Positions 19,628 through 61,463 of a DNA stretch of 64,000 nucleotides are shown here, piece after piece (position 1 is the first letter of the stretch; each line of letters starts with the position of its first letter). The notes below the pieces were generated by a model, which made no database searches, was not told the origin of the DNA, and was given only the letters and a program-made list of their open reading frames with translations. Source of the stretch: a virus (lineage: Duplodnaviria > Heunggongvirae > Uroviricota > Caudoviricetes); IMG/VR virus record IMGVR_UViG_2944808559_000001, positions 23,109-87,108 of that record. One strand, given 5' to 3'. The translations under genes were made by a program, and so were the position numbers.

Positions 19628-20239
19628 CTACTCGATGGCCGCGGCGACCAGGTCGGACGGGTCGTCCTCCAGCCGCCACGGCGTGGTGGACACGCTCAGC
19701 TCCGGGAACCCGAAGTGTTCAATCTCAATGCCGAGGATCGCGGTCGGCGGACGCTCCCGGTACCGGTCGAACACGCCAACGCCGCCCGGCTCCTTGGAGT
19801 TGCAGCTCATGCACAGCAGCCCGCGGACCAGATCGGTAGCGTGGTCGTGGTCCCACACCTGCCGCGCATGCCGGCCGCCGCAGATGGCGCACCGCTCGGC
19901 CTGCCACTCGACGAGCACATCCACTGGGTCGGCGACCCGGTCAACTTCCGGGGCTTGCCAGCTCCAGCAGGCAGGCTCCGCCGCATGCAACCACTGCTCA
20001 ATCTTGTCGCGCTCCGCGTCGAGTTCAGCGTCCAGTCGGGCTGCCTCGTCGCGCTCCTCTGCGGTCCTGTGGGCCGGGCACGCCGGGTACCGCGACTGAA
20101 TCCGAGCACGGCAGGGCTTGCCCGTGGCTTTGGTCGGCCGCCCGCACTCCACCGTGCTCTCTCCCATGATCAACGCGTACGCGGACTGGAGCGTGTGCCC
20201 GTCCGGCAGGGACCGGCGCGCCGGTTCGAAGCCGCTCAC
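19628..20239 (-). CDS. HNH endonuclease (endonuclease VII-like)
   Basis: CAICGG...VWDHDHATDLVRGLLCMSCNS. Overlaps the integrase stop by 4 nt. Confidence 0.7.
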   Translation of the reverse strand: MSGFEPARRSLPDGHTLQSAYALIMGESTVECGRPTKATGKPCRARIQSRYPACPAHRTAEERDEAARLDAELDAERDKIEQWLHAAEPACWSWQAPEVDRVADPVDVLVEWQAERCAICGGRHARQVWDHDHATDLVRGLLCMSCNSKEPGGVGVFDRYRERPPTAILGIEIEHFGFPELSVSTTPWRLEDDPSDLVAAAIE

Positions 20240-21282
20240 TGCGTCCCGCCCGCGTACTGCGCCTCACCGCGGGCGAACTCCGCGCCCAGGTCGTAGGCGG
20301 GTGACCTGTCGAGCGTGTCGCGGGCGCGGTCGTAGCGGCGGGTCGTGCGGGGGTCGGCGTGCCCGAGGAGGTCCTGCACGACGTGCAGCGGGTACTTCTC
20401 CAGCAGGTGCGTGGCGATGGAGTGGCGTAGCGAGTGCGGGGAGAGCGAGTCCGCGTGCGGGATCCCGGCCTTCTTCGCGACGCGGCGCAGCTGGCGGAAG
20501 ATGGACGGCTGATCCAGCGGCTTGCCGGTGTCGGTGCGGAACAGCGGGCCGTCGTCGTTGCCGCGCTCCTCGAGGTAGCGGTCGAGGGCGACGGAAGCGT
20601 ACGGCGGGATGATGAACCGCTTCGTGTTCTCCTCGCCGCCGCCCTTCACCGGGAGGTCGATCACCCGGTGGCCCCGGTCGTGGCCGAGCGCGGACCGCTT
20701 GACTCGGATGACGCCGCCGACTCGGCACGCGGTCACCACGAGCAGGCACAGCAGCGCGTACGTGCGGGCCGTCTCATAGGTGTGGGCGTGGGCGAGCATG
20801 CGGTCCAGCTCATCCTTGGACAGGCCGCGCGTCTTGGACACGTCGGCGGTCTTCGGCCGGTCCATCTTGGTGAACGGGTTGCGCACGGCGTGGCCGGCGC
20901 GGACGAGGTAGTCGTACCAGGACGAGGCGGCGGCCAGGCGGCGCGAGCGGGTCGAGGCGGCCAGGCCGCAGTCTCGGAGTGCGGCGCCGTACAGGTCGGC
21001 TGCGGACGGTGGCACGTCGGCGGGATCCAGCCCGCGACCTTGCAGGTAGGTGATCCACCAGCCGAGGTCTTGGACGTAGCCGCGCTTCGTCGCTTCGGAG
21101 GTGCGTTTCTCGCTGGACAGCCATGCTCCGGTGGCCGCCAGCGCGTCGATGGTCATGCCGCCTCGGCGCATCAGGTCGGCGAGCTCATGTGTGGTGCGTG
21201 CGGGGGCCGTTCCCCGGAGGGTGGGGCTGGTCATGGGGGCGATCGCGGTCCCGGGGGGGATTTGTTGATCTTGAGGGATCAT
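20236..21282 (-). CDS. int: tyrosine recombinase / phage integrase
   Basis: 348 aa. Has an R...HSLRHS...LLGHADPRTTRRY catalytic tail and an N-terminal SAM-like domain. Confidence 0.85.
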   Translation of the reverse strand: MIPQDQQIPPGTAIAPMTSPTLRGTAPARTTHELADLMRRGGMTIDALAATGAWLSSEKRTSEATKRGYVQDLGWWITYLQGRGLDPADVPPSAADLYGAALRDCGLAASTRSRRLAAASSWYDYLVRAGHAVRNPFTKMDRPKTADVSKTRGLSKDELDRMLAHAHTYETARTYALLCLLVVTACRVGGVIRVKRSALGHDRGHRVIDLPVKGGGEENTKRFIIPPYASVALDRYLEERGNDDGPLFRTDTGKPLDQPSIFRQLRRVAKKAGIPHADSLSPHSLRHSIATHLLEKYPLHVVQDLLGHADPRTTRRYDRARDTLDRSPAYDLGAEFARGEAQYAGGTQ

Positions 21283-34260: not shown

Positions 34261-36015
34261 CTACTGCTGCGCCGTCCACGTGGCCTGGGCCGCCTTGATG
34301 GCGTCGTCCCAGGTCTTGGTGCGTCCGGCGCAGTCGCGGAGCAGCTCGGCGACGCCTTCGGCCTCGTCGGTGGTGAGGTCCTGCAGCGTCGTCACGCCCC
34401 GGTTGAACAGCCGGGAGAGGTCTGCCAGCTGGTCCTCCGGGCTGAGCCGCTCGTCGAGCTTGGCGAACAGGGCGGTGATGTCGTCGAGCGCCTTGGCGCG
34501 CTTCCTGGCCGCCGCTGAGGTGGGCTGGTGCTTCCCGGCGCGGAACTGGGTCAGGAAGGCGTTCAGCTCGTTGTTCGCGGCCTCGCGGTGGCCGACGTTC
34601 ATGGCCTTGCGGAACGCCCCGGCCAGCGTCTGCGGGGAGCCGCCCGCTCGAGCCCATTCGGCGCGGATCATCTCCGCGAGGTGCTCGCGCTCGATCCCGT
34701 ACTTGTCCGGCATGGGCGGGTTCGCAGGCGGCTCGGCCGGGGCAGCGTCGGGCGCGTCGAGGTGGTCGAGCACCAGGGCGACCTGGTCGAACGTGAGGTC
34801 CTTGCGGCTCTCGATCTTCTCGCCCAGAATGCGGCCGATCTCGGCGCGGACCGCGTCCGCGTCCGTGATGCCGCGGTCGGCGAGCAGCGCGTGCACCGCG
34901 TTCATCATGGCCTTGCTCGGCTTCCGCGCCTTGGCCGGCTGCTCCGGCGCGGCCATAGGCCGTTCGGGGGGGAAGACCTCGCCGTCGATGGTGGGCACCG
35001 GGATGTCGTTGAGCGCCTTGATCAGTTCGTCGGCCTGCTCCTCGGTGAGCTGGCGGGCCGACTTGCGCTCGCCGAACAGCTTCTCCACCAGGTCCAGCGC
35101 CGCGTCCTTGCTCATCTTGCGGTCGCGGACGAGCCGGGCGATCTCGCGGTCCTGGTCCCCGGTCAGCCCGCCCGTGGGGAACGTCTGGCGGATCGTGACG
35201 GATTCGCGGACGGGCCGCGTCGGATCCGCCGCTGCCTCGTCCTCGTCGGGCTCGTTGGGGTGGGTGGTCATCTCGACGGGGTTGGCGGCGGGGTCGAAGT
35301 CCGTCCGGACGCCCTCGTCCACGGACAGGGCGACCGCCATCTCAAGGGCGGTCGGGATGGATTTGACCAGCCGGGCGCGAATCATCGTCTTCCGGCCCAT
35401 TTCATCGAAGTGGTCCCGCCACGGGCCGACGATGCCGTCCTTGTTCTTGGCCATCGCGAACTTGTCGCGGTGGGCCTGCATCTCGGCCAGGCTCATCGGC
35501 TCGGTGAGGATGCGCTGGGTCCCGTGCGGGCCCTGGATGCTCGCCATCGCGTAGAACCCGATGGCCGGGCCGCGCGGGGTGCCCAGCGGCGGCATCTTGT
35601 GGGTGAGCAGGTCAGCGCCGAGGTCCATCTCGAACACGTCGCCCTGGCGGACGATGTTCGACTGGACCGCGACGACCCTGGGGTGCCGGTAGGCCAGGTC
35701 GGCGTACCCGCGATAGCCGACAATCAGGGTGGCGTCGGTGCGCTTCTCTCGCCAGTTCTTCATCGGCAGCAGCCACGCGTGGCCGAGGCCTGCGACGCCC
35801 GGCCGCAGCCCGAGCTGCGCGCACGTCATCAGGCCGCCCAGCACGGACGGGGCGTAGCACGTGGCCAGCGCCGGTGTGGCGCGCAGGCTGTTCAGCGCGT
35901 CCTGCTTGAGCTGGGCGACCGTCACCCCCTTGGGCAGCGCCGCCTCGAACTCGGCGGTGTGCTTGCCGATGCGGTCATTCATCTCCTCGATCAGCGCGGG
36001 CAGATTGTCGCTCAT
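34261..36015 (-). CDS. recT: RecT-family single-strand annealing protein with a ~300-aa C-terminal extension
   Basis: The N-terminal ~280 aa are RecT-like. Total 584 aa. ATGA overlap with the exonuclease. Confidence 0.75.
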   Translation of the reverse strand: MSDNLPALIEEMNDRIGKHTAEFEAALPKGVTVAQLKQDALNSLRATPALATCYAPSVLGGLMTCAQLGLRPGVAGLGHAWLLPMKNWREKRTDATLIVGYRGYADLAYRHPRVVAVQSNIVRQGDVFEMDLGADLLTHKMPPLGTPRGPAIGFYAMASIQGPHGTQRILTEPMSLAEMQAHRDKFAMAKNKDGIVGPWRDHFDEMGRKTMIRARLVKSIPTALEMAVALSVDEGVRTDFDPAANPVEMTTHPNEPDEDEAAADPTRPVRESVTIRQTFPTGGLTGDQDREIARLVRDRKMSKDAALDLVEKLFGERKSARQLTEEQADELIKALNDIPVPTIDGEVFPPERPMAAPEQPAKARKPSKAMMNAVHALLADRGITDADAVRAEIGRILGEKIESRKDLTFDQVALVLDHLDAPDAAPAEPPANPPMPDKYGIEREHLAEMIRAEWARAGGSPQTLAGAFRKAMNVGHREAANNELNAFLTQFRAGKHQPTSAAARKRAKALDDITALFAKLDERLSPEDQLADLSRLFNRGVTTLQDLTTDEAEGVAELLRDCAGRTKTWDDAIKAAQATWTAQQ

Positions 36016-41847: not shown

Positions 41848-42087
41848 TCAGCCAGGCAGGTCGAACCGGGTCGTGGTGCGCACGCCGTCGAGGAAGATCT
41901 GCCACTCCCCAGGAGAGAACTGGTTGACCGGCCCGCGTTCGTCGGGTCCGCCGCCGGACGCCCGGGATCTGGTTACCTCCACACGTCCGCGATGCAGCCG
42001 CACCCAGACACAACCCCCCGACTCCGAAGCCGGAGCCTTACGCCATTCCTCGGTCAGCACGCTGCAGAAACTCCTCGCGGATCGCAT
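41848..42087 (-). CDS. DUF397 domain protein
   Basis: WRKAPASESGGCVWV...GPVNQFSPGEWQIFLDGV matches the Streptomyces DUF397 pattern (WRKSSYS..G.CVEV...F...EW..F). Confidence 0.6.
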   Translation of the reverse strand: MRSARSFCSVLTEEWRKAPASESGGCVWVRLHRGRVEVTRSRASGGGPDERGPVNQFSPGEWQIFLDGVRTTTRFDLPG

Positions 42088-42874
42088 GGATGAGATCAGC
42101 CGACTCCTCTGGGGTCAGCGCTGCGGCGGCCAGGTGCTCGAACCGAAGCTCGAACTCCGCCGCAGCCTGATCCACGATCTCATCCACGCTCTCCTGGTAC
42201 AGCACCGTAGGCATGTCCGGCATCCCGTACAGCACGAACGACGGCATCACCACCGGCCCGGCAAGCACACGGATCGACGTCGTCGACCGGCCGGCCTCCT
42301 CGAGGAGTCTGCCGAGCTGGTCGGCCATCACCTGAGGGCCGCCGAACGGCTGGCGCAGCGCCTGCTCGCCGATGATGGCCTCCACCGCGGGCGGGTCGTC
42401 GGCCGACAGCAGCGCCTGGCGGGCGATCCGGGCGCGGGCGCGCAACTGCACCAAGCCGCGCTCCTCCCACGGCCGGTCGGCGGCGATGACTTCGCGGGCG
42501 TAGTCGAGGGTCTGCAGCAGGCCGGGCACCACTTGTGTCTGCCAGTAGCGGACGACGCGGGCCTCGGTCTCGTAGATGACGTAGTCGCCGAGGACCTTGC
42601 CGTACGGCTTCCACCACGGCTCGGTGCGAGCGTCCATGATGAGCTGAATGCAGCGCCGCTGGGTCGGCTCGTCGGCGCCGTACAGCGCGAGGACGTCGCG
42701 GACGTATCCGGGCGTCACCAGCGAGTGGCCGTTCTCGACGTTCGACACCTTGCCGCGTGAGCAGCCCAGTTTCTGCGCGACCTCGTCCAGCTTCAGGCCA
42801 CGGGCAGCGCGCAACTCACGCAGCGCTTCTCCAAGCTGGGCACGGCGCAAGGGCGGACTGATACGCGACGACAT
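42038..42874 (-). CDS. XRE-family HTH regulator with DUF5753-like C-terminus (partner of DUF397)
   Basis: LGEALRELRAARGLKLDEVAQKLGCSRGKVSNVENG. Canonical actinomycete XRE/DUF397 gene pair. Confidence 0.65.
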   Translation of the reverse strand: MSSRISPPLRRAQLGEALRELRAARGLKLDEVAQKLGCSRGKVSNVENGHSLVTPGYVRDVLALYGADEPTQRRCIQLIMDARTEPWWKPYGKVLGDYVIYETEARVVRYWQTQVVPGLLQTLDYAREVIAADRPWEERGLVQLRARARIARQALLSADDPPAVEAIIGEQALRQPFGGPQVMADQLGRLLEEAGRSTTSIRVLAGPVVMPSFVLYGMPDMPTVLYQESVDEIVDQAAAEFELRFEHLAAAALTPEESADLIHAIREEFLQRADRGMA

Positions 42875-43056
42875 GAGGGAATTGTGGGGGAATGGCAGAG
42901 AAGGCTCGCGAGCGGCACAGCAACCGTGATGACAAAGTGATCAGGGAAAACGCTTCCCTGATAAGCGAGCCATGGACGCATCTCGTGCCTGCACACGACG
43001 AAGCCCCGGCGCTTCTGTCATACGCCGGGACTTCGTTTTCAACACGCTCGACGAGA

Positions 43057-50543: not shown

Positions 50544-51065
50544 ATGGCCAGCACAAACAAGACGCGCGGCCGAGGTAAGGCTGTGCCCGAGGCGCAGTTC
50601 AGCGAACATGCGAGCCCAGCGCCGGCCACAGCTACGAAGACGAAACAGCCAGCAACTTCCCGCCGCATCGGCAAGCCGAAAACCATGTACGCGCTCAACG
50701 TGCGCATCCCCCGGGACATGGACGAGCGCCTCACCGCCGCCGTCGAGCGCACCGGCATGGGCCCCCAGGCCATCGCCAACGAGGCGATCAACGACCACGC
50801 CACAGCGGTCGGCGTCCCCGAGGACATCCCCGTCCCGGCCAAGGAAGACCGCCCGTTCCGCGAGCGCACCCCCAAGAAACGCCGCTACGGCACCGCCGAA
50901 GAAGAGCAAGACCGCCAGCTCGGGGTACGCGTCACGCCCCTCACCGACGCCCGCCTCACCGCGGCCTGCGACATCACCGGCAACGGGCCGCAGGACTTCG
51001 TGCGGACGGCGTTGAACGTCTGGCTGCACAAGCGGAAGATCCCCTTCAGCGCCCGCCAGGATTAG
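50544..51065 (+). CDS. tandem ribbon-helix-helix (CopG/Arc-like) DNA-binding protein
   Basis: Internal ATG MASTNKTRGRG. Two RHH-like units (MYALNVRIPRDMDERLTAAVERTGMGPQAIANEAI and LGVRVTPLTDARLTAACDITGNGPQDFVRTALNVWL). Upstream region carries TTGCGCAAAGTGCGCAA. Confidence 0.5.
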   Translation: MASTNKTRGRGKAVPEAQFSEHASPAPATATKTKQPATSRRIGKPKTMYALNVRIPRDMDERLTAAVERTGMGPQAIANEAINDHATAVGVPEDIPVPAKEDRPFRERTPKKRRYGTAEEEQDRQLGVRVTPLTDARLTAACDITGNGPQDFVRTALNVWLHKRKIPFSARQD

Positions 51066-54823: not shown

Positions 54824-55183
54824 TTACCACTCCTGGCTTGTACGGAGAGGCTGCTCACCCGGCGGGATCAGCTTGAAGCTGACGTAGACCTTAGGGTCGC
54901 CGGGCTCAGGGTCAACGTTGGAGTGCAGCCGCTGGTACTCGGTCGCGTTGATCAGCTTGCCGCCGTCGACGAAGACAGGCTCGACCTCGCTCCCGGGCTC
55001 GGAGGAGGAGTAGTAGTAGATCTTGACGAGAGCGAAGGCGACGACGGGATAGGTCGCCCTGTCGATGACTGTCCTCTTCCTGGTCTCGGCGTCTAGCTCC
55101 TCCTGGGTTACCTGCACCTGCCAGCCGGGGGCGGCCGAAGTAATGGACAGGATCTCATTGGCGAATCGCTCGGGCATGTGCAT
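54824..55183 (-). CDS. hypothetical protein (119 aa)
   Basis: ORF track. Confidence 0.45.
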   Translation of the reverse strand: MHMPERFANEILSITSAAPGWQVQVTQEELDAETRKRTVIDRATYPVVAFALVKIYYYSSSEPGSEVEPVFVDGGKLINATEYQRLHSNVDPEPGDPKVYVSFKLIPPGEQPLRTSQEW

Positions 55184-55236
55184 CTTCCTCGGGTAGTTGG
55201 TGGCGTCTCGGTTCGGGTGTCGAGATTCGGCGCGCG

Positions 55237-56934
55237 CTACTGCTTACGTCCAGGCTGATGGTGGCGGATGAAATCCTTGTACGCCTGCCGGAACGCAGGA
55301 TCGGCGAAGCGTCGGGCCAGCTTGCGCCGCTGCTGGTCGATGACCTCGGCGTCCGGCATGCCGATCGTCAGTGACTCCTGCAGCAGCAGCGCGCCCTCCT
55401 GATCAGACAGGAGGCCGCCTTCGGGCCGGCAGCCGTGCTCGCAGGCCATAGCGTCGACGGCGCCCCACAGACGGCAGTTGTGAGCGATCCCTGAGCTGGT
55501 GACGAAGGACTCGGCGTCCTCCACCTGCAGGTCGAAGACAGGCCCCTGGTAGTCCCGCCGAACTTCCGGTGAGCGGTACTGCTCCTCGCCGGATGCTCCA
55601 GTGGCGGGCGTGTAGACGAAGGCGTCGTCGTACATGTTCTTGGTGCCGTGCCCCGGCTTGCTCCCGCGCCAGTTGGAGGGGAACAGGTGCACGTCGTAGG
55701 TGGTGCCGTTCCGGTCCGACTTATGGGCGACGTACATGCGCGGGAAGAAGCCGTTGGCCAGCGCGACGAACCCCATCTGGACGGCGAGCTGCTCGGAGTT
55801 CGTCGTCGTGCTCATATCCTTCTCGCGGAGGCACTTGCGGCCGTCTCCGAGGTCCCACGCCTCGTAGATGGCCCAGAGTTGGGCGTGAGAAAGGCGGGCG
55901 AACAGTGAGGGACGGATGCGTTTCTCCATCGCGCCGACGCCGCCGAGGGCTTTCATCAGCCGACCGAACAGTGCGGACGACACGGTCAAGGCAGAGGTCT
56001 TCCCGCGGGTGCGAATGAACTGGCTGGTGATTCCCAGCGTTTCGAGGTATTTGCCGATGCACTCCAGGATCGGCAGCTCGTCCAGGTGCATAGTGAAGGT
56101 CGCCGACTGGATCGAGGCGTTGCCCTCCGCGAGGTAGATGCCGAGCATGAAGAGGAAGTCCTCATCCACCGGGATTCGGGCGGGAATCTGCTGCATGATT
56201 CCGCGCACGGCGGCCCCGCTCGTGAAGGGCTCAAGGTGGTCGCCGACGAGCTTCCCCTGTACGAAGTCCGTCACGTCGAGGGACTGGAGGGGCGGCACGT
56301 CCTCGAAGACTCTCGGGAAGCAGAGGTAGTCGCCAGCCTGATGCTGCCGCTTGGCGATCAATTCCTCGGCCGGTCGCCACTCCGGCGCCGGCGCCTTACG
56401 CCTGTCCTTATGCCGAGCGGCGAACCACTGATGGTCAGCGGTCGACCAGCATGGCACATGTGTCCCGGTGTGCCGGACGTTGATGACCGGGCCTTCGTAG
56501 TAGCGGCTGGCGGTGGCGACGACGCGGTGGAGCTTGCCGTCCATCCCGTAGACCCGGTCTCCGGCATAGATGTCCTTGATCTGCTTCGGGCCTTCGTCTG
56601 TGTAGACCCAGGCGTCGGGCAGAAAACAGATCATCGGCCGGTCGGCGTACGTGGTGCAGCGGTCGTCCTTGAGGGCGGGGCAGGCGTAGTCGCCGTCGCG
56701 GTCGAGCTGGTCGAGCGCGTCGTCGTGGTGGGGGATGGTGACGCCGCGGGCGCGGATACGCTGCCGTTCGCGGGGGTGCATGTCGATCGGGCCGCACGAG
56801 TCGGCGCACAGGCCCTTGCAGTTCGGCTGCGGCACCTGCGCGTACAGCTCGTCCAGGCGGGCGTCGATATCGGAGCGTCGCACAAGCTCTCCAGGGTGAG
56901 GGGTAGGGGCAGAAAGAAGGGCGCGAGCCGTCAA
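55237..56934 (-). CDS. intein-containing Cys-cluster protein; the extein is a ~181-aa CxxxCxxxC...C-rich putative metal-binding protein
   Basis: TTG start per the ORF track. Contains all the canonical intein blocks. Confidence 0.7.
   Translation of the reverse strand: MTARALLSAPTPHPGELVRRSDIDARLDELYAQVPQPNCKGLCADSCGPIDMHPRERQRIRARGVTIPHHDDALDQLDRDGDYACPALKDDRCTTYADRPMICFLPDAWVYTDEGPKQIKDIYAGDRVYGMDGKLHRVVATASRYYEGPVINVRHTGTHVPCWSTADHQWFAARHKDRRKAPAPEWRPAEELIAKRQHQAGDYLCFPRVFEDVPPLQSLDVTDFVQGKLVGDHLEPFTSGAAVRGIMQQIPARIPVDEDFLFMLGIYLAEGNASIQSATFTMHLDELPILECIGKYLETLGITSQFIRTRGKTSALTVSSALFGRLMKALGGVGAMEKRIRPSLFARLSHAQLWAIYEAWDLGDGRKCLREKDMSTTTNSEQLAVQMGFVALANGFFPRMYVAHKSDRNGTTYDVHLFPSNWRGSKPGHGTKNMYDDAFVYTPATGASGEEQYRSPEVRRDYQGPVFDLQVEDAESFVTSSGIAHNCRLWGAVDAMACEHGCRPEGGLLSDQEGALLLQESLTIGMPDAEVIDQQRRKLARRFADPAFRQAYKDFIRHHQPGRKQ
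55477..56628 (-). mobile_element. intein (384 aa) with LAGLIDADG homing endonuclease
   Basis: N-splice ...RPMI|CFLPDAWVYTDEG, block B TADH, LAGLIDADG motifs LGIYLAEGN and AWDLGDGRK, C-splice FVTSSGIAHN|C. Confidence 0.7.
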
Positions 56935-56959
56935 GGGGGTACGGCTCGCGCCCCGAGGG

Positions 56960-56976
56960 TGATTACGGCGTAATCA
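56960..56976. repeat. 17-bp AT-rich palindrome TGATTACGGCGTAATCA (copy 1), 1 nt after the HU stop and 26 nt upstream of the intein-gene start
   Basis: Read directly. Confidence 0.6.
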
Positions 56977-56977
56977 G

Positions 56978-57274
56978 CTACGCCCTGCCGTTGACGGCGG
57001 CCTCGAGTTCGGCGCCCATCGTGAACGTGACGGCCTTCTTCGCAGCGATGTCGATCTTCTCGCCGGTCGACGGGTTGCGGCCCACGCGGGGCTTGCGCTC
57101 GACGACCTTGAGGCGGCCGAAGTTCGTGATGGCGACGTCGCCGCCGGCGGCGAGCGCGCCGCTCATGGCATCGATGACAGCGCTGACGACGAGTTCGGCG
57201 TCGACGGGGAGTTCGGCCTTCTTCGCGTCCTGGATGGCGCCGTTGACTGCCTTGACGAGGTCACGCTTGTTCAT
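56978..57274 (-). CDS. HU-family DNA-binding protein
   Basis: MNKRDLVKAVNGAIQDAKKAELPVDAELVVSAVIDAMSGALAAGGDVAITNFGRLKVVERKPRVGRNPSTGEKIDI is the HU/IHF fold signature. Confidence 0.8.
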   Translation of the reverse strand: MNKRDLVKAVNGAIQDAKKAELPVDAELVVSAVIDAMSGALAAGGDVAITNFGRLKVVERKPRVGRNPSTGEKIDIAAKKAVTFTMGAELEAAVNGRA

Positions 57275-57357
57275 GGCTGGTTGCCCTTCTGTGTCGATGA
57301 TCCAGTATTACGCTAGCGCCAGCGCTAGCGGCATAGCCTTACTGGAGGATCCGGCGG

Positions 57358-57756
57358 TCAGCGCGGCTCCTGGACGGTGAACAGCTTCTCGGCGAGCGAG
57401 GGAAGCATGGCCCACGTGACGCCGCGGTGGTTCCAGCGGTGCACGCGCTCCAGCAGCCACTGGGCGCCCGGGGTGAAGAGGCGCTTCACGTGGCTCGGCG
57501 CGGCCTTGATGGAGCAGCCGGCCGGGAGGTCGTCGATGGTCACGCCGTGGACGGCGAGCAGTTCGACGGCGATGCAGTTGTGCGGGTCCTGCTCGCCGCG
57601 ATGGGAGGAGCCGACGCGGCCGGGGTGGGCGGCGCTGATCTGCGCGAGCTGGCGCATGAGCTTCCCGTGGCTGATCCTCAGCTTCCTCGTCGCGGGGCTG
57701 GCGGGGGTCTCCTCTTCCGGCGGGGGCGGGAGGTCAGGAGGCGAGGAGGTGTGCAT
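57358..57756 (-). CDS. hypothetical protein (132 aa)
   Basis: ORF track. Confidence 0.45.
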   Translation of the reverse strand: MHTSSPPDLPPPPEEETPASPATRKLRISHGKLMRQLAQISAAHPGRVGSSHRGEQDPHNCIAVELLAVHGVTIDDLPAGCSIKAAPSHVKRLFTPGAQWLLERVHRWNHRGVTWAMLPSLAEKLFTVQEPR

Positions 57757-58363
57757 GGGCTTCCTTCCTGGGCGGGTGAGTGTGGTTGATGAGGGTCGGG
57801 GCCGGTGACGGGTCGCCGGTCGGGAGGGGTGCGGGGGATCGGTCGCGGGCGGGCAGGTCGTAGCCGCCGCCCGGGGCCCGGCCGGGTAGCGGCCGCCGGT
57901 TGGCTGGGTCGCGGCGGATGGTGACGATGGGGCCGCCGCTGTCGAACCAGCCGGGCGGGTAGACGGCGGTGACGTCGTTGAGCCAGCGGCGCATCTTGGC
58001 TCTGCCGTAGTCCTTGGGCGGCTCGTGAGCGGGGGGAAGGTTCCGCCACTGGGGGTGGGTGTGGTCGTGGGCGGCCTCGACCGCGTCCAGCACGTGCCCG
58101 AAGTCCTGGCTGCTCTCCCAGGCGCAGCCCAGGCACGCGCCTCGGAAGCGGTGCGGGTGGCGGCGGACCTGGAACAGCACGGTCGGCAGGTGCTTGTCGG
58201 CCACCTGCAGCTCGGCGTGGGCGCGGCCGAGCTGGTTGCCCGGGTGCGTGATGTAGATGGCCCACGCTCCGGCCGGAGGGTCGGTGAGCGTCCGGTAGTG
58301 GAGCTGGCGGGCGACCGCGCCCCGCAGCTCGGACGCTCCGTTGATTACGCCGTAATCAGTCAC
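57734..58363 (-). CDS. hypothetical protein (209 aa, GTG start)
   Basis: Codons 2-7 (TDYGVI) are encoded by palindrome copy 2. Confidence 0.45.
   Translation of the reverse strand: MTDYGVINGASELRGAVARQLHYRTLTDPPAGAWAIYITHPGNQLGRAHAELQVADKHLPTVLFQVRRHPHRFRGACLGCAWESSQDFGHVLDAVEAAHDHTHPQWRNLPPAHEPPKDYGRAKMRRWLNDVTAVYPPGWFDSGGPIVTIRRDPANRRPLPGRAPGGGYDLPARDRSPAPLPTGDPSPAPTLINHTHPPRKEAHAHLLAS
58342..58358. repeat. 17-bp palindrome TGATTACGCCGTAATCA (copy 2), overlapping the first codons of the 57734..58363 gene, 12 nt from the upstream stop
   Basis: Read directly. Confidence 0.6.
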
Positions 58364-58369
58364 GCGGCA

Positions 58370-59131
58370 TCACAGGCCCGGGTCGGCGTCGGAGCGGACG
58401 TGTCCGGAGGCGTCGACGACGCCGGCCACGTCGTGCTGGTCGGGGAAGGGCGGCTCGTCGGCGAACAGGCCGCCGCCGGCGTTCTCCTCCTTCTCCGGCT
58501 CGGGGGGAGGCGGCGGGCTGTAGCGGTCATCAGGGAAGGACTGGCAGGACGGCGAGCACCTGACACCGGCCGGGCTGCCGCAGTCCACCAGGCACTCGTA
58601 CGGGTAATGCGTCTGTGCGCGGATCAGGGTGACGGCCTCGTGCGCGTACCGGGTGCGGCGCGGCTCACCGGGATCGCGGCCGGGCAGCGGCGGGGGCGTG
58701 ATCGCGTAGACGGGGCCGCCCGGCGTGTCTTCGACGGTGACGTGCGTGATCGGGCCCGACGGGAACTCGTTTGCGCGGCCGGAGCGCACACCGAGGCTGC
58801 TGCCGTCCTGGTCGAGGCGGGTGAACAGGTTCTGCTGGTCCAGCAGGCCGCGCAGCAGCTGGGCCGCCTCTTCCGGGGTGATCATGGACGGCCGGGTGCG
58901 GATCAGCGCGGCCTTGACCAGGACCATGGAGCGTGTCCCGAAGAGGTACATCTCGGCCAGGCCGGTCTCTCCTCGGTCGAGCAGGTCGCCGAGGGTGTGC
59001 ACGTCATTGCGGTGCAGCAGCTTGTAAAGGCCGAAGGGCAGACCGGGAAGCGCCTCCTCGATGAGGGCCTCGTGCGGCCGGCCGCTGCGCCGGGCGAGCT
59101 CGTCGAGCGGCGGCTGGGTGTCGTGGGTCAT
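58370..59131 (-). CDS. hypothetical protein (253 aa), possible HhH/alpha-CTD-like N-terminus
   Basis: LDELARRSGRPHEALIEEALPGLPFGLYKLLHRNDVHTLGDLLD. Confidence 0.45.
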   Translation of the reverse strand: MTHDTQPPLDELARRSGRPHEALIEEALPGLPFGLYKLLHRNDVHTLGDLLDRGETGLAEMYLFGTRSMVLVKAALIRTRPSMITPEEAAQLLRGLLDQQNLFTRLDQDGSSLGVRSGRANEFPSGPITHVTVEDTPGGPVYAITPPPLPGRDPGEPRRTRYAHEAVTLIRAQTHYPYECLVDCGSPAGVRCSPSCQSFPDDRYSPPPPPEPEKEENAGGGLFADEPPFPDQHDVAGVVDASGHVRSDADPGL

Positions 59132-59553
59132 GAGCGTCCTTCGGCAGGGGTGGTCGACGGGGCGGTCAGAACGTGGCGGTTGGCGTCGAGCCAGTCCGCG
59201 GTGCGGAAGCGTTGCGCGGTGTCGGGGATGACGGCGACCAGGAAGGCCAGGGCTCCGCCGGACAAGGCTCCGAGGATCGGCGGCAGCAGGTGACGGACGA
59301 GCTCGCCGTCGGGCCGGGCGCCGAGGATCCGGTCTTCCAGCAGGGCGTAGTCGTCGAGGACGACCACTCCGGCGCGCTCGCTGGCGTGGACCAGCTTCGG
59401 GCAGGCCAGCAGGGAGAAGACCGCGCAGTCGATGTGGAGGCCGGGCTCAAAGGAGTACGGCATGTCCGTCTCGCCGATCATGACCATCGGCCCGGTGATC
59501 GGGGTGCCGCAGGTGCCGCACAGGCGGTCGCGCATGCCCTGGCGCTGCCGCAT
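59128..59553 (-). CDS. hypothetical protein with a CxxC pair (141 aa)
   Basis: ORF track. No in-frame start further upstream despite an open frame. Confidence 0.45.
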   Translation of the reverse strand: MRQRQGMRDRLCGTCGTPITGPMVMIGETDMPYSFEPGLHIDCAVFSLLACPKLVHASERAGVVVLDDYALLEDRILGARPDGELVRHLLPPILGALSGGALAFLVAVIPDTAQRFRTADWLDANRHVLTAPSTTPAEGRS

Positions 59554-59791
59554 GGAGCAGTTGACGCCGAGCGTGGCGCGGCCCTCGCCGGGGACGCAGT
59601 CGCAGATGAGGATGCGGCCGTGCTCCGGGTCGAGCTCGACGCGTTCTTCGCCGTCCGCCCAGTCGGCGACCCACGGGACGGGGAAGCCGCGTTCGGTGGG
59701 GGGGCCGCGATCTGTGGCGGCATGGGAGGCAGCAGGCGCTTCATGGATCTCCTTGTGAGGGGGTGCGGCGGCCGGTCGGCCGCCGCGCCGG

Positions 59792-59808
59792 TGATTACGG
59801 CGTAATTA
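59792..59808. repeat. 17-bp palindrome variant TGATTACGGCGTAATTA (copy 3), in a 300-bp intergenic region ~45 nt after the upstream stop
   Basis: Read directly. Confidence 0.55.
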
Positions 59809-59853
59809 CTTCGGACCGTGGCGGCGGCCCGTGCGGGCCGCCGCCGTGCTGGG

Positions 59854-60120
59854 CTACTTCGGGATGCGGCGCACCTTGACGTGCGCCTTCGGGGCGCCCT
59901 TCTCGATCAGGTGGTCGCACATGAAGTCAGCGTTTTCGCGGGTGTAGGGGCCGATCCGGACCGTGTCACCCATTGCGCCGCCCTTCAGGACGGTGATCGT
60001 GCCGGACGCCTCGAACATCTGGCGGCGGGTGTTCCAGAACTCGGCCGCGTCGGGCGCGGTCATGTTGAGGCCGGTCTCGTTGATGACGACGCCCCACTCC
60101 TCGCGGTCGGCCTCGGTCAC
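59854..60120 (-). CDS. hypothetical protein (88 aa, GTG start in GTGA overlap)
   Basis: RBS GGAGGAGG. C-terminal part of a long arginine-rich track ORF. Confidence 0.4.
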   Translation of the reverse strand: MTEADREEWGVVINETGLNMTAPDAAEFWNTRRQMFEASGTITVLKGGAMGDTVRIGPYTRENADFMCDHLIEKGAPKAHVKVRRIPK

Positions 60121-61463
60121 GCCTCCTCCTCGATCGGCTCGGCCGGCTCCGCAGCGTCCTGCTGCTGCTTGAGGAGCGCGGCCTGGGCGGCGGCGGCCTC
60201 CTCCTGCTCGGCCAGCTCGGCGGCGAGCTGCTCGACCTGCTCGCGCAGTCGCTGGGCCTTGCGGTCGTGTCCGGCCTTGCGGGCGGGGGCGTGGTGACGG
60301 TCGTGCGCGGCGCGCAGTTCGTCCAGGCTGGGCTGCTTGAGCCAGTGCTGGGTGAGCTGGTGCACGATCGCCCTGACGGCCTTCTCGGTCTTGTCCGGCA
60401 CGCTGACCGTGTTGTAGCGGCCGGGCCTGCCGACGTAGGGGCCGTGTCTGCCGTCGGCGCTGGTGTTGGACGGGTCGTAGACGCCGTCTCCGGCGAGCGT
60501 GATGGTGTTGACCACGGGCGCCCCCGGGCGGGACCGGTAGCCCTGGTCGCACTCGTACTTGCCGGTCTCGGGGTCGTCGCCGTACTGCACGCGCAGGTAG
60601 TCCGGGCGGCTACTGCCGTAGGTGCTGCGCTCGTATTCGAGCGCGTCCAGGCCGATCCAGAACACGCCGACCCGGACGACGGCGTAACGGGTGCGGCCCT
60701 TGTCGTCGTGGGAGACGTGCACGCGCAGCGCCTTCGTGCCCTTCCCGCCCGGCCGGGGGACGCTGATGACGAACGAGGTGACGCCGTCGACGCGGTCGCC
60801 GTCCCGGTACGGGTCCGCGCCGACCTGGCCCAGGATCTCCTCGATGTCGAGCCCGCCGACCATCTTCAGCTGATCGAACGCCTCCATGAGGACGGCTGTC
60901 CGGGACGGGATGGCCCCCGACTCGGGCAGGTGGACGGGGCAGTCGGGCGGGCAGTCGTCGGGGCCGGTGGTGCGGCACAGGATGCAGGTGACGCCCTCCT
61001 TGGGCACCGTCTGGGAGACGTCGTACACGGCGGTGCCGACCAGCCTGCTGTACTTGCCGACGACGACCTCCTCGGCCTTGCCGGTCTCGGCGTTCTCCCG
61101 TTCCTCCCGGCGCAGGCCGCGGTACAGCGACTCCACCCACAGGGGGATGGCGTCCTCACGGAGCTGGCGGCCCTCCCGCTCCCACCACTTCTCGCCCTGC
61201 ACGCGGGTCGCGTACGGGTCCTGCGCCCACAGCCGCATGCTGTTGGCGAGGGTGTGCCGGTTGTAGTGCGGGAACTGGGCGACGTACAGCCGGACCTCGT
61301 CCAGCACGGCGGGGGTGTCGCGGATCGCCGCGGCGGTGATCTCCGCAGCGGCGGCGGCCCAGGAGTTGCCGAGCAGCTGCTGCTCGCGCCAGGCGGCGTA
61401 CTCCTCGGCGGTCATCTTCGCGGCGCGGCCGGTCTTGGGCTGCTCGGCGGGTGGACGGATCAT
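60117..61463 (-). CDS. ArdC N-terminal-like (DUF1738) domain protein
   Basis: FPHYNRHTLANSMRLWAQDPYATRVQGEKWWEREGRQLREDAIPLWV matches the ArdC-N ssDNA-binding pattern (FHxYSxxN..L...Q....T.V.G...W...GR.V..GE..I). 448 aa. Confidence 0.55.
   Translation of the reverse strand: MIRPPAEQPKTGRAAKMTAEEYAAWREQQLLGNSWAAAAAEITAAAIRDTPAVLDEVRLYVAQFPHYNRHTLANSMRLWAQDPYATRVQGEKWWEREGRQLREDAIPLWVESLYRGLRREERENAETGKAEEVVVGKYSRLVGTAVYDVSQTVPKEGVTCILCRTTGPDDCPPDCPVHLPESGAIPSRTAVLMEAFDQLKMVGGLDIEEILGQVGADPYRDGDRVDGVTSFVISVPRPGGKGTKALRVHVSHDDKGRTRYAVVRVGVFWIGLDALEYERSTYGSSRPDYLRVQYGDDPETGKYECDQGYRSRPGAPVVNTITLAGDGVYDPSNTSADGRHGPYVGRPGRYNTVSVPDKTEKAVRAIVHQLTQHWLKQPSLDELRAAHDRHHAPARKAGHDRKAQRLREQVEQLAAELAEQEEAAAAQAALLKQQQDAAEPAEPIEEEA

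Follow-up and report, generated by a model that had tools for sequence, protein, structure and literature searches.

What are three near-identical palindromes doing at gene boundaries in the early operon of an actinomycete prophage? The DNA analysed here, a stretch of 64,000 nucleotides (hereafter the window), belongs to a serine-integrase prophage integrated in Nonomuraea maritima and not to a free phage genome, and the palindromes fall within the early operon that adjoins the integrase end of the prophage. The original prediction had taken them for stoperator-like repressor sites or for transcription-factor sites that punctuate an operon. Our preferred reading, to which we give a probability of roughly 0.72, is that they are orphan parS sites, that is, ParB-loading centromere sites, of the SCP1-parS1 specificity class. 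We read them as an orphan centromere because their core is identical to an experimentally defined parS, because the same sequence is linked to parAB in other elements, and because no parA or parB was found in the 82 kb of contiguous sequence covered here.

Three palindromes at gene boundaries

Copies of the palindromic 17-mer TGATTACG[G/C]CGTAATCA begin at 56960, 58342 and 59792, so the sequence and positions first given for the three near-identical copies were verified.

56960..56976, no strand: site 1, TGATTACGGCGTAATCA, a perfect 17-bp palindrome around one central base, with the exact SCP1 parS1 core ATTACGGCGTAAT inside
58342..58358, no strand: site 2, TGATTACGCCGTAATCA, with the central base flipped
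59792..59808, no strand: site 3, TGATTACGGCGTAATTA, ending in ..TAATTA, with the 13-bp core intact

The core ATTACG[G/C]CGTAAT is exact in all three sites, with a central G or C, and the single mismatch of site 3 is at position 16, in the outer flank and outside the core. A scan for all copies, allowing up to three mismatches, found the 17-mer at these three places only in 64 kb, against 0.00 expected from 100 dinucleotide-preserving shuffles; the recurrence is indeed far beyond chance. A looser core, TTACGNCGTAA, searched with one mismatch, occurred at the same three places only in the window (0.24 expected), and no half-sites were found elsewhere in its 64 kb. All three copies lie inside 2.85 kb, with none other in 84 kb. 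A fourth perfect palindrome, of a neighbouring specificity class, lies just beyond the window edge.

The sites had been described as lying within about 1–45 nt of the stop codon of the gene upstream, and the measured distances from the minus-strand stops are 1, 11 and 45 nt. Site 1 begins 1 nt past the stop of an HU-like gene (56978-57274, minus strand), and site 2 is 11 nt past the stop of a 253-aa gene (58370-59131). As had also been noted, site 2 encodes TDYGVI of the downstream protein: it overlaps the first codons (V-T-D-Y-G-V-I-N) of a DUF6349 gene (57734-58363), of which codons 2-7 read TDYGVI. Read on either strand, the 17-mer hits a stop codon (TGA or TAA) in two of its three frames, so it is confined to intergenic gaps or to the single frame that reads DY[G/A]VI. 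This coding constraint, rather than punctuation of transcription, accounts for the placement at gene boundaries, and the proposal that the sites punctuate an operon gives way to this simpler explanation. A different, intergenic motif, CGCTAGCG, is present in 12 copies and is a better candidate than the palindromes for an operon-punctuating signal.

Match to SCP1 parS1

The parS1 site of SCP1, a linear plasmid of Streptomyces coelicolor, is attacggcgtaat (Table S3 of McPhillips et al., NAR 2026, PMC13245405), and its 13-bp core is identical to that of the window sites. The match is to the supplementary table; as text strings, the 17-mer and its 13-15-mers were not found in the paper texts. SCP1 parS1 was mapped by ChIP-seq and bound in biolayer interferometry with a KD of 386 nM, and one such site lies inside parB1 (PMC13245405). 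The plasmid's ParB1 binds and hydrolyses CTP and slides as a CTP-dependent clamp (PMC13245405). This published binding of an identical core, together with the covariation of site and recognition helix described below, suggests that the window sites are likewise targets of a sliding helix-turn-helix (HTH) ParB CTPase. That part of the original prediction which assigned the sites to a sequence-specific dimeric DNA-binding protein therefore stands, but its stoperator and transcription-factor proposals do not, since the core is that of parS1 and is tied to parAB elsewhere.

The site on actinomycete plasmids

When genomes were scanned, exact copies of the 17-mer turned up in many contigs and plasmids of Streptomyces, as a rule several to each. 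In 37 fetched loci, parA was closely preceded by one to three copies and followed by parB, which often held a copy of its own, read as DYGVIT. The ParB of these loci is a common Streptomyces plasmid type, found in 533 Streptomyces plasmid records. On a complete 36-kb linear plasmid, all five sites were within 5 kb around parAB; the three window sites are similarly clustered.

A variable position of the site covaried with the ParB recognition helix, in a comparison that left SCP1 ParB1 out of the alignment. ATTACG sites paired with the helix SQG[W/L][V/I]SQR, ATCACG sites (the SCP1 parS2 core) with [A/P]Q[S/A]TL[A/S][S/T]K, and ATAACG sites with TQAFISQR. The ParB locus of N. terrae (L278) had no site of these three classes. 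From 259 plasmid sites we derived the extended consensus GG-TGATTACG-S-CGTAATCA-CC, which the window sites match, outer flanks included. Flanks with 5 bp or more of additional complementarity accompanied about 19% of plasmid sites, against about 1% in a shuffled control. A small mobile palindromic element was considered and rejected: the flanks are site-specific, and the window sites have no extra flank complementarity. In its extended form of 17-21 bp, the site serves hundreds of plasmids of actinomycetes as their common centromere.

The host prophage and its relatives

The contig that holds the prophage (JBICUH010000011.1) was covered over positions 43-125 kb (about 82 kb contiguous), and no ParA or ParB was detected there by tblastn, profile HMM or precomputed Pfam annotation. 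In a limited search, no parS1-class ParB appeared among the listed N. maritima proteins. One gene of the window has its counterpart beside parAB in a relative.

50544..51065, plus strand: probable tandem ribbon-helix-helix (RHH) gene (tblastn 1e-22 to positions 3386-3982 of the relative's locus L003; synteny)

Its matches to RHH/RelB-type profiles were weak only. Its next neighbour in the window is a SnoaL-like gene, at the place where the relative has parA and parB. That relative, a mosaic element on a 104-kb contig of Nonomuraea sp. NPDC050394 (L003/L245/L279), has the order RHH–parS–parA–parB, with ParA and ParB confirmed by Pfam. Its four sites span 10.7 kb: one separates the RHH gene from parA, and the others stand at gene boundaries of an early operon homologous to that of the window. 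Sites are thus positioned around cognate parAB in this relative (at L279) and not in the window, where, by gene order and homology, the RHH gene is the sole remnant of the module.

At orthologous junctions, the closest related prophage (L275) has, three times over, a consistent variant, CACGnCGTCATC, that is not palindromic. The consistency of this variant would suit co-evolution with an element-specific binder better than it would random decay. Two related prophages were without sites, and one had diverged versions. Megablast of positions 55000-61000 against phage and plasmid collections returned no close DNA relatives, and no close viral relatives of the DUF6349 gene were found.

Sites also occur in an unrelated small phage family. 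The 41.5-kb phage UViG_2875367630 has the 17-mer 10-18 nt upstream of the -35 element in three of its eight conserved promoters, and neither ParA nor ParB was detected in the 92% of its genome that was covered. Relatives of this phage keep the 13-bp core. A core kept upstream of early promoters hints at a ParB-independent or regulatory use, and the family, having no detectable ParB, leaves room for another binder.

Alternative explanations

The sites may be non-functional relics of a lost parABS module, intact only thanks to a recent loss or to an equally recent recombination that brought them in. We regard this as possible but on balance doubtful. The absence of parA and parB right after the RHH gene fits such a loss, as do the two site-less prophages and the diverged one; at the junction after the HU gene, moreover, 3 of the 17 positions of the site are changed in L275, so that the site is no better conserved than its flanks. 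Against decay stand the 13-bp core, perfect in three of three sites, and the variants of L275, which share one consensus with no random damage. Site 3 is a gain of this lineage and not a decaying leftover: it lies within a 56-nt insertion, between G+C-rich hairpins, that is missing from three related prophages. The perfect palindrome of the neighbouring class just outside the window also argues against relics.

It is distinctly unlikely that the palindromes are operators of a prophage-encoded regulator, stoperator-like or like the conserved inverted repeats of phiC31, at which a dimer bound at early-operon gene boundaries would block or modulate read-through or promoters. Their place beside the integrase end, the conserved inverted repeats of similar size in intergenic regions of phiC31, the promoter-proximal copies in the ParB-less 41.5-kb phage and the consistent variant of L275 at orthologous junctions all agree with such a role. 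Yet the sequence is the plasmid parS consensus, outer flanks too, and the sites number just three (plus one). No promoter-like sequence was found adjoining the window sites (matches to the promoter pattern GGGGTTGCACACCC were mostly chance), and no site lies at any regulator gene of the window. Genes of the RHH, GntR, XRE/DUF5753 and LuxR types are also present in site-less relatives, so that no regulator has a matching presence. The tandem-RHH and GntR proteins, conserved across the prophage group, were rejected as binders: they occur in site-less relatives, have no site at their own genes, and differ in their DNA-contacting strands between elements with the same site. The phiC31 repeat itself (AJ006589), CCTACTCACGTGAGTAGG, is a different sequence that occurs there at least 8 times, and the window motif, with up to three mismatches allowed, is absent from phiC31.

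Stable hairpins do stand next to two of the sites.

56918..56955, minus strand: terminator-like hairpin with a 14-bp stem and 9-nt loop, then CCTTCTTTCT, directly downstream of site 1
59765..59786, minus strand: G+C-rich hairpin between site 3 and the RBS and ATG of the next gene, within the lineage-specific insertion
59820..59845, minus strand: G+C-rich hairpin between the stop of an 88-aa gene and site 3, matching a single hairpin at the same junction in related prophages

The first folds at -46.5 kcal/mol for its 91-nt context (z = -5.5), is kept in L275, and was absent from a consensus terminator scan because its loop exceeds 8 nt. It is likely the terminator of the HU gene, rather than the palindrome of site 1. 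The original prediction had judged the stem of the palindrome, at 6 bp, too short for a convincing terminator, and we agree that it is too weak: on its own, the motif reaches no more than -4.4 to -5.1 kcal/mol (z = -0.8 to -2.1). It has no T-run, and an intrinsic terminator was rejected, the stable hairpins being the neighbouring ones. Rfam 15 covariance models gave no match at E <= 1 over 56500-60300. An RNA-level hairpin, acting as a terminator, processing site or antiterminator target in a polycistronic early transcript, can therefore be dismissed as very improbable: the palindrome can fold a 7-bp stem with a 3-nt loop and lies between genes beside strong hairpins, but this fold is outside the minimum-energy structure in two of three longer contexts, there is no U-tract, the symmetry reaches the loop positions and the central base flips between G and C, as in a twofold DNA site, and, as double-stranded DNA, the identical sequence functions as parS in vitro.

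Proposed mechanism and significance

If the sites are orphan parS, each would be a nucleation point for a dimeric HTH ParB CTPase. On replicons with the cognate genes, ParB binds the core ATTACG-N-CGTAAT, takes up CTP and closes into a clamp, which slides to flanking DNA to form a partition complex several kb wide, to be positioned by ParA. The N. maritima prophage belongs to a mosaic phage lineage; it uses a serine integrase and, in the 82 kb covered, has kept only the RHH gene and a cluster of intact sites that spans 2.9 kb. That ParB binds the three copies in the window, and that they have any function today, we infer. Activity would require a parS1-class ParB in trans, from a co-resident plasmid or phage-plasmid, and could then give partition, silencing or incompatibility; otherwise the sites would be inert remnants.

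A broader idea, speculative and rather improbable, is that actinomycete phages may carry orphan parS so that co-resident ParB-CTP clamps load on them. Such loading might (a) silence the early lytic operon or tether phage DNA, so that the phage senses and exploits the resident element, or (b) destabilise competing ParABS1 phage-plasmids, which the prophage would exclude; alternatively (c), a phage or host protein may share ParB1 specificity. Sites that are orphan by design would fit the gain of site 3 by insertion and the second-class site next door. The consistent L275 variant would fit as well, as would the 13-bp core retained by the ParB-less 41.5-kb phage family.

The parS of a Streptomyces plasmid was experimentally defined only in 2026, for one plasmid (PMC13245405). 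New here are the extended site across plasmids, with site classes that covary with the ParB recognition helix, the reach of the parS1 system into phage-like elements of Nonomuraea, and sites that persist intact, with no cognate ParB detected, both in the integrated prophage and in a small phage family unrelated to it. If functional, the orphan sites would tie the partition machinery of plasmids to the regulation of prophages or to rivalry among mobile elements; if relics, they would mark a switch, within one phage lineage, from one of two modes of lysogeny, plasmid-like and integrative, to the other. For annotation, the site is a simple signature by which the centromeres of plasmids and phage-plasmids from actinomycetes can be located.

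Comparison with known systems

Beyond the core itself, the window sites share with SCP1 parS1 and ParB1 a few copies over a few kb, a copy tolerated in coding sequence, and a cognate HTH-ParB family that adjoins the same sites in other elements. The SCP1 sites surround parAB1 and have outer flanks CT...GG, whereas the window sites have the TG...CA flanks of most other plasmids and belong to a prophage integrated in a different genus, Nonomuraea, with no parAB within 82 kb.

The phiC31 repeats and L5 stoperators are likewise short, repeated protein-binding sites in intergenic gaps of phages of high-G+C hosts, and are bound by the immunity repressor, a role of which the window sites give no sign. 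Stoperators of the L5 gp71 type are asymmetric, oriented and far more numerous (dozens of copies), whereas the window sites are perfect palindromes in three copies in 64 kb, and this identity was rejected. Operators of the phiC31 type adjoin conserved early promoters; the window sites have no conserved promoter nearby.

Closer parallels come from ParB-family systems. The centromere sites of the linear plasmid-prophage N15 lie in regulatory regions. These SopB sites, IR1-IR4, are dispersed (PMC7205306). In N15, in the window prophage and in its ParAB-carrying Nonomuraea relative, palindromic sites of the ParB type stand singly at scattered places in a phage genome and form no tandem array, but N15 encodes SopAB and is maintained as a plasmid, whereas the window prophage is integrated and lacks these proteins. 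KorB of RK2 is a ParB-family CTPase whose palindromic site, OB, is scattered over the replicon and has a central G/C base, as the window sites do. The KorB clamp doubles as a long-range transcriptional silencer, as cited in PMC13245405 (its ref. 18). The OB sequence is unrelated, and the window holds no sign of silencing or of a KorA-like partner.

Among cluster A mycobacteriophages (RedRock), some members are integrative and others have parABS and an extrachromosomal prophage (PMC7157519). Their parS are arrays of 8-bp direct repeats flanking parAB, in cassettes that swap at one locus, and orphan parS sites are not described for the integrative members (PMC7157519). By analogy, the window prophage and the NPDC050394 element look like the two sides of the same alternative between integration and parABS.

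Palindromes at gene boundaries

A sequence search of the window confirmed the three copies of a 17-bp palindrome that had been described in the original prediction:

Site 1, 56960-56976, TGATTACGGCGTAATCA
Site 2, 58342-58358, TGATTACGCCGTAATCA
Site 3, 59792-59808, TGATTACGGCGTAATTA

Their recurrence was indeed far beyond chance: allowing up to three mismatches, the 17-mer matched only these three places in the 64-kb window, and shuffled sequences gave zero matches. A looser search with the core returned the same three places and no others, and no isolated half-sites were found in the window. As had been proposed, the sites lie close to stop codons (1, 11 and 45 nt past the stops of upstream minus-strand genes), and site 2 falls in coding sequence, overlapping the first codons of the DUF6349 gene. 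The stem had been judged too short for a terminator, in agreement with our folding: the hairpin formed by the motif itself is weak and, in two of the three contexts, is left out of the best fold, and the stable hairpins are neighbours of the palindromes, not the palindromes themselves.

The further suggestion that the sites act as stoperators or otherwise punctuate transcription fared less well. On both strands two frames of the 17-mer are closed, one by TGA and the other by TAA, and the sole open frame reads D-Y-G/A-V-I. Because of these stops in two frames, the motif fits only short post-stop gaps or a tolerant protein end in a tightly packed phage genome, and this pattern matches both the window and a 104-kb parAB-carrying relative. 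Thus, the coding constraint accounts for the boundary placement and no transcriptional role is required. A consensus scan found no match to a promoter or terminator at the sites, nor did any Rfam family match there.

Identity of the motif

A motif scan using one genome per species returned at least 120 loci. The majority of the matches listed came from Streptomyces contigs or named plasmids, which carried 2-6 copies per 8 kb, often 37-49 bp apart. Clustering the ORFs of the listed loci gave one dominant family, ParA, present in at least 37 loci with the motif at distance zero. At these listed loci, 1-3 motif copies immediately precede the parA promoter region and parB comes next; an in-frame copy, read as DYGVIT or DYAVIT, is often present in the part of parB encoding its disordered C-terminal region. 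The protein is the usual ParB of Streptomyces plasmids (533 Streptomyces plasmid records), and all five copies in a complete 36-kb linear plasmid fall inside 5 kb around parAB. The consensus of 259 distinct sites was (G/A)G-TGATTACG-S-CGTAATCA-C(C/T).

The centromeres of SCP1, a linear plasmid of Streptomyces coelicolor, have been mapped by ChIP-seq and confirmed by biolayer interferometry (McPhillips et al., NAR 2026, PMC13245405). Its parS1 is attacggcgtaat and its parS2 is attatcacggcgtgataat; each par operon is surrounded by three sites, and each parB has one inside it. CTP is bound and hydrolysed by both ParBs, which also slide, with ChIP zones of 15-20 kb (PMC13245405). The exact parS1 core was present in all three window copies. 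Site class also covaried with the ParB recognition helix on ParB-carrying IMG/VR contigs, several of them ~90 kb, which independently supports the identification as parS.

Site core and ParB recognition helix on ParB-carrying IMG/VR contigs
Core ATTACG: helix SQG[W/L][V/I]SQR
Core ATCACG (the parS2 core): helix [A/P]Q[S/A]TL[A/S][S/T]K
Core ATAACG: helix TQAFISQR

Each of three classes had a site copy within the element's own parB. This and the covariation point to ParB as the binder in these ParB-carrying elements.

The plasmid loci had other features. A separate conserved inverted repeat in the parA promoter region, CTAACGTGTC...GAACGTTAGTATGG, is probably an autoregulatory operator. Additional complementary flanks of 5-17 bp, specific to each site, occur at approximately 19% of plasmid sites, versus ~1% in a shuffled control, and place these sites at the tips of potentially long hairpins or cruciforms. 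Streptomyces loci L032, L068 and L097 are among those concerned, and one such arrangement is GTGCTGGG-motif-CCCAGCAC. Dense 17-mer arrays, with as many as 6 copies in 1.6 kb at spacings of 38-49 bp, adjoin a conserved ~700-aa protein, not parAB:

L059, 726-2294
L110, 10-384
L028, 5726-5779

Probable orphan sites in an integrated prophage

Identical proteins place the window in contig JBICUH010000011.1 (318 kb) of assembly GCA_043198055.1, and the NCBI protein name assigns it to Nonomuraea maritima. Nearly all genes of the window are on the minus strand, and they include terminase, an SPP1-type portal, a minor capsid protein, a P22-like coat protein, a RecT-GemA fusion, YqaJ, RusA, XRE/DUF5753 and LuxR-type regulators and a tyrosine recombinase. 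Since a 631-aa large serine recombinase lies ~3.7 kb past the window's high end, followed by host-type genes, and tail genes run on for at least 9 kb beyond the other side, the prophage is integrated and spans at least 77 kb.

Only two contigs in a viral-contig scan held the exact 17-mer more than once, one of 104 kb and one of 41.5 kb. The former (69% G+C), from Nonomuraea sp. NPDC050394, has modules in common with the window. Its gene order is tandem-RHH (ribbon-helix-helix) gene, site, parA, parB, with ParA and ParB both Pfam-confirmed, and this module lies on the opposite strand within an early operon homologous to the window's; a 442/448-aa protein, HU, DUF2786 and an alpha-CTD-like protein are common to both operons. 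Three more sites occur there at gene boundaries over 10.7 kb, every one providing the upstream gene's TGA stop. The window has kept the RHH gene (50544-51065, plus strand), after which comes a SnoaL-like gene. Neither ParA nor ParB was found in contig positions 43-125 kb by tblastn, profile HMM with filters off or precomputed Pfam, and a limited search of the listed N. maritima proteins gave no ParB of the parS1 class.

Three prophages in other Nonomuraea genomes have the same integrase and early operon, and parAB is absent from all of them too. Two lack sites entirely; the closest, in N. wenchangensis, has one 1-mismatch copy, elsewhere. It also carries three exact, non-palindromic copies of a variant, CACGnCGTCATC (L275 5307, 10765 and 12139), in one orientation on the coding strand, at junctions orthologous to window sites 1, 2 and a fourth position. 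The variant may be a diverged site class or the product of conversion among relics, and its consistency across three copies is at odds with random decay. Site 3 sits in a 56-nt insertion that none of the three related prophages has. These differences suggest that sites turn over quickly and are not simply decaying. At the fourth position N. maritima has a perfect palindrome, TGATCACGACGTGATCA, just outside the window (8068-8084 of L132, which runs past its high end; ~64416-64432 in window numbering), flanked by a 342-aa gene and an Endonuclease_7 gene; the palindrome has a core of the SCP1 parS2 class, and the N. wenchangensis counterpart of this place reads TGACCACGACGTCATCA.

The other contig, IMGVR_UViG_2875367630_000001, is a 41.5-kb phage of 56% G+C, unrelated to the window. 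Its genes include those for a DnaB-like helicase, a primase and a sigma-like protein, and for a putative ThyX recognised by eye. No ParA or ParB was found in 92% of it (positions 1-38050). It has eight promoters that are almost identical in sequence, TTGCACACCC-N-GGTGTGCTTTAAT, and whose spacers each contain an inverted repeat; the 17-mer lies 10-18 nt upstream of three of the eight. Five relatives (among L282-L288; 82-85% protein identity) have two copies of the 13-bp core, flanked by CT...AG or TT...AG.

Overall, we put at about 0.7 the probability that the sites belong to the parS1 class and are orphan in the sequence covered. That they still have a function is roughly an even bet. They may serve in regulation or act in trans, or another protein may bind them, given that the limited protein search listed no ParB of this class, that the N. 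wenchangensis variant is consistent and that the 41.5-kb phage family carries the motif or its core with no ParA or ParB found in the 92% covered of that phage. An RHH or GntR protein as binder was rejected because both are kept in related prophages without sites, and the phiC31 repeat is a different sequence from the motif.

Other features of the prophage

The palindromic octamer CGCTAGCG occurs 12 times in the window versus ~2.4 expected from shuffles, mostly in intergenic gaps:

1190, 8561, 24340, 25350, 27420, 33513, 44648, 50218, 50444, 57311, 57323, 62566

Its coding-strand form is usually bipartite, CGCTAGCG-N3-CCGC(A/T)AGC, and ahead of the HU gene two copies occur together, followed by TAATACT. 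Its density is 6-8 per 20 kb in three related Nonomuraea prophages, and it was not recurrent in the ParAB-carrying relative. For the phage's own repeated promoter or operator, the octamer makes a stronger candidate than do the parS sites.

Further features of the window were:

20236-21282, tyrosine recombinase, mid-prophage, adjoining an Endonuclease_7 gene and additional to the terminal serine integrase
34261-36015, 584-aa fusion of a RecT and a GemA-like domain
42927-42943, a distinct palindrome, TGATGACAAAGTGATCA, immediately upstream of the XRE/DUF5753 gene (42038-42874) and perhaps its own operator
55237-56882, minus strand, CxxCxxCC (putative zinc/iron-chelating) protein with an insertion matching Hint and LAGLIDADG
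59128-59744, minus strand, gene after site 3, frameshifted by a 1-nt deletion at a seven-C run (~59697-59703)

The insertion is probably an intein with a homing endonuclease; homologues of 148-169 aa in two related prophages have no insertion, and one relative has the 548-aa form. The frameshifted gene has an intact counterpart of 203-205 aa in three related prophages, and the identical frameshift is present in an assembly from a separate sequencing run (L133, 100% identical). The candidate explanations are a pseudogene, programmed slippage and a homopolymer error common to both assemblies.

Comparison with known systems

Plasmid ParA at Streptomyces loci L012-L130 has an N-terminal extension resembling two RHH repeats. 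In the Nonomuraea elements a gene of its own encodes the RHH part. The kind of site is already known, as a parS1-class ParB site described in 2026; what is new is where it occurs, as an orphan cluster within a Nonomuraea prophage that is integrated and whose relative has a full parABS module.
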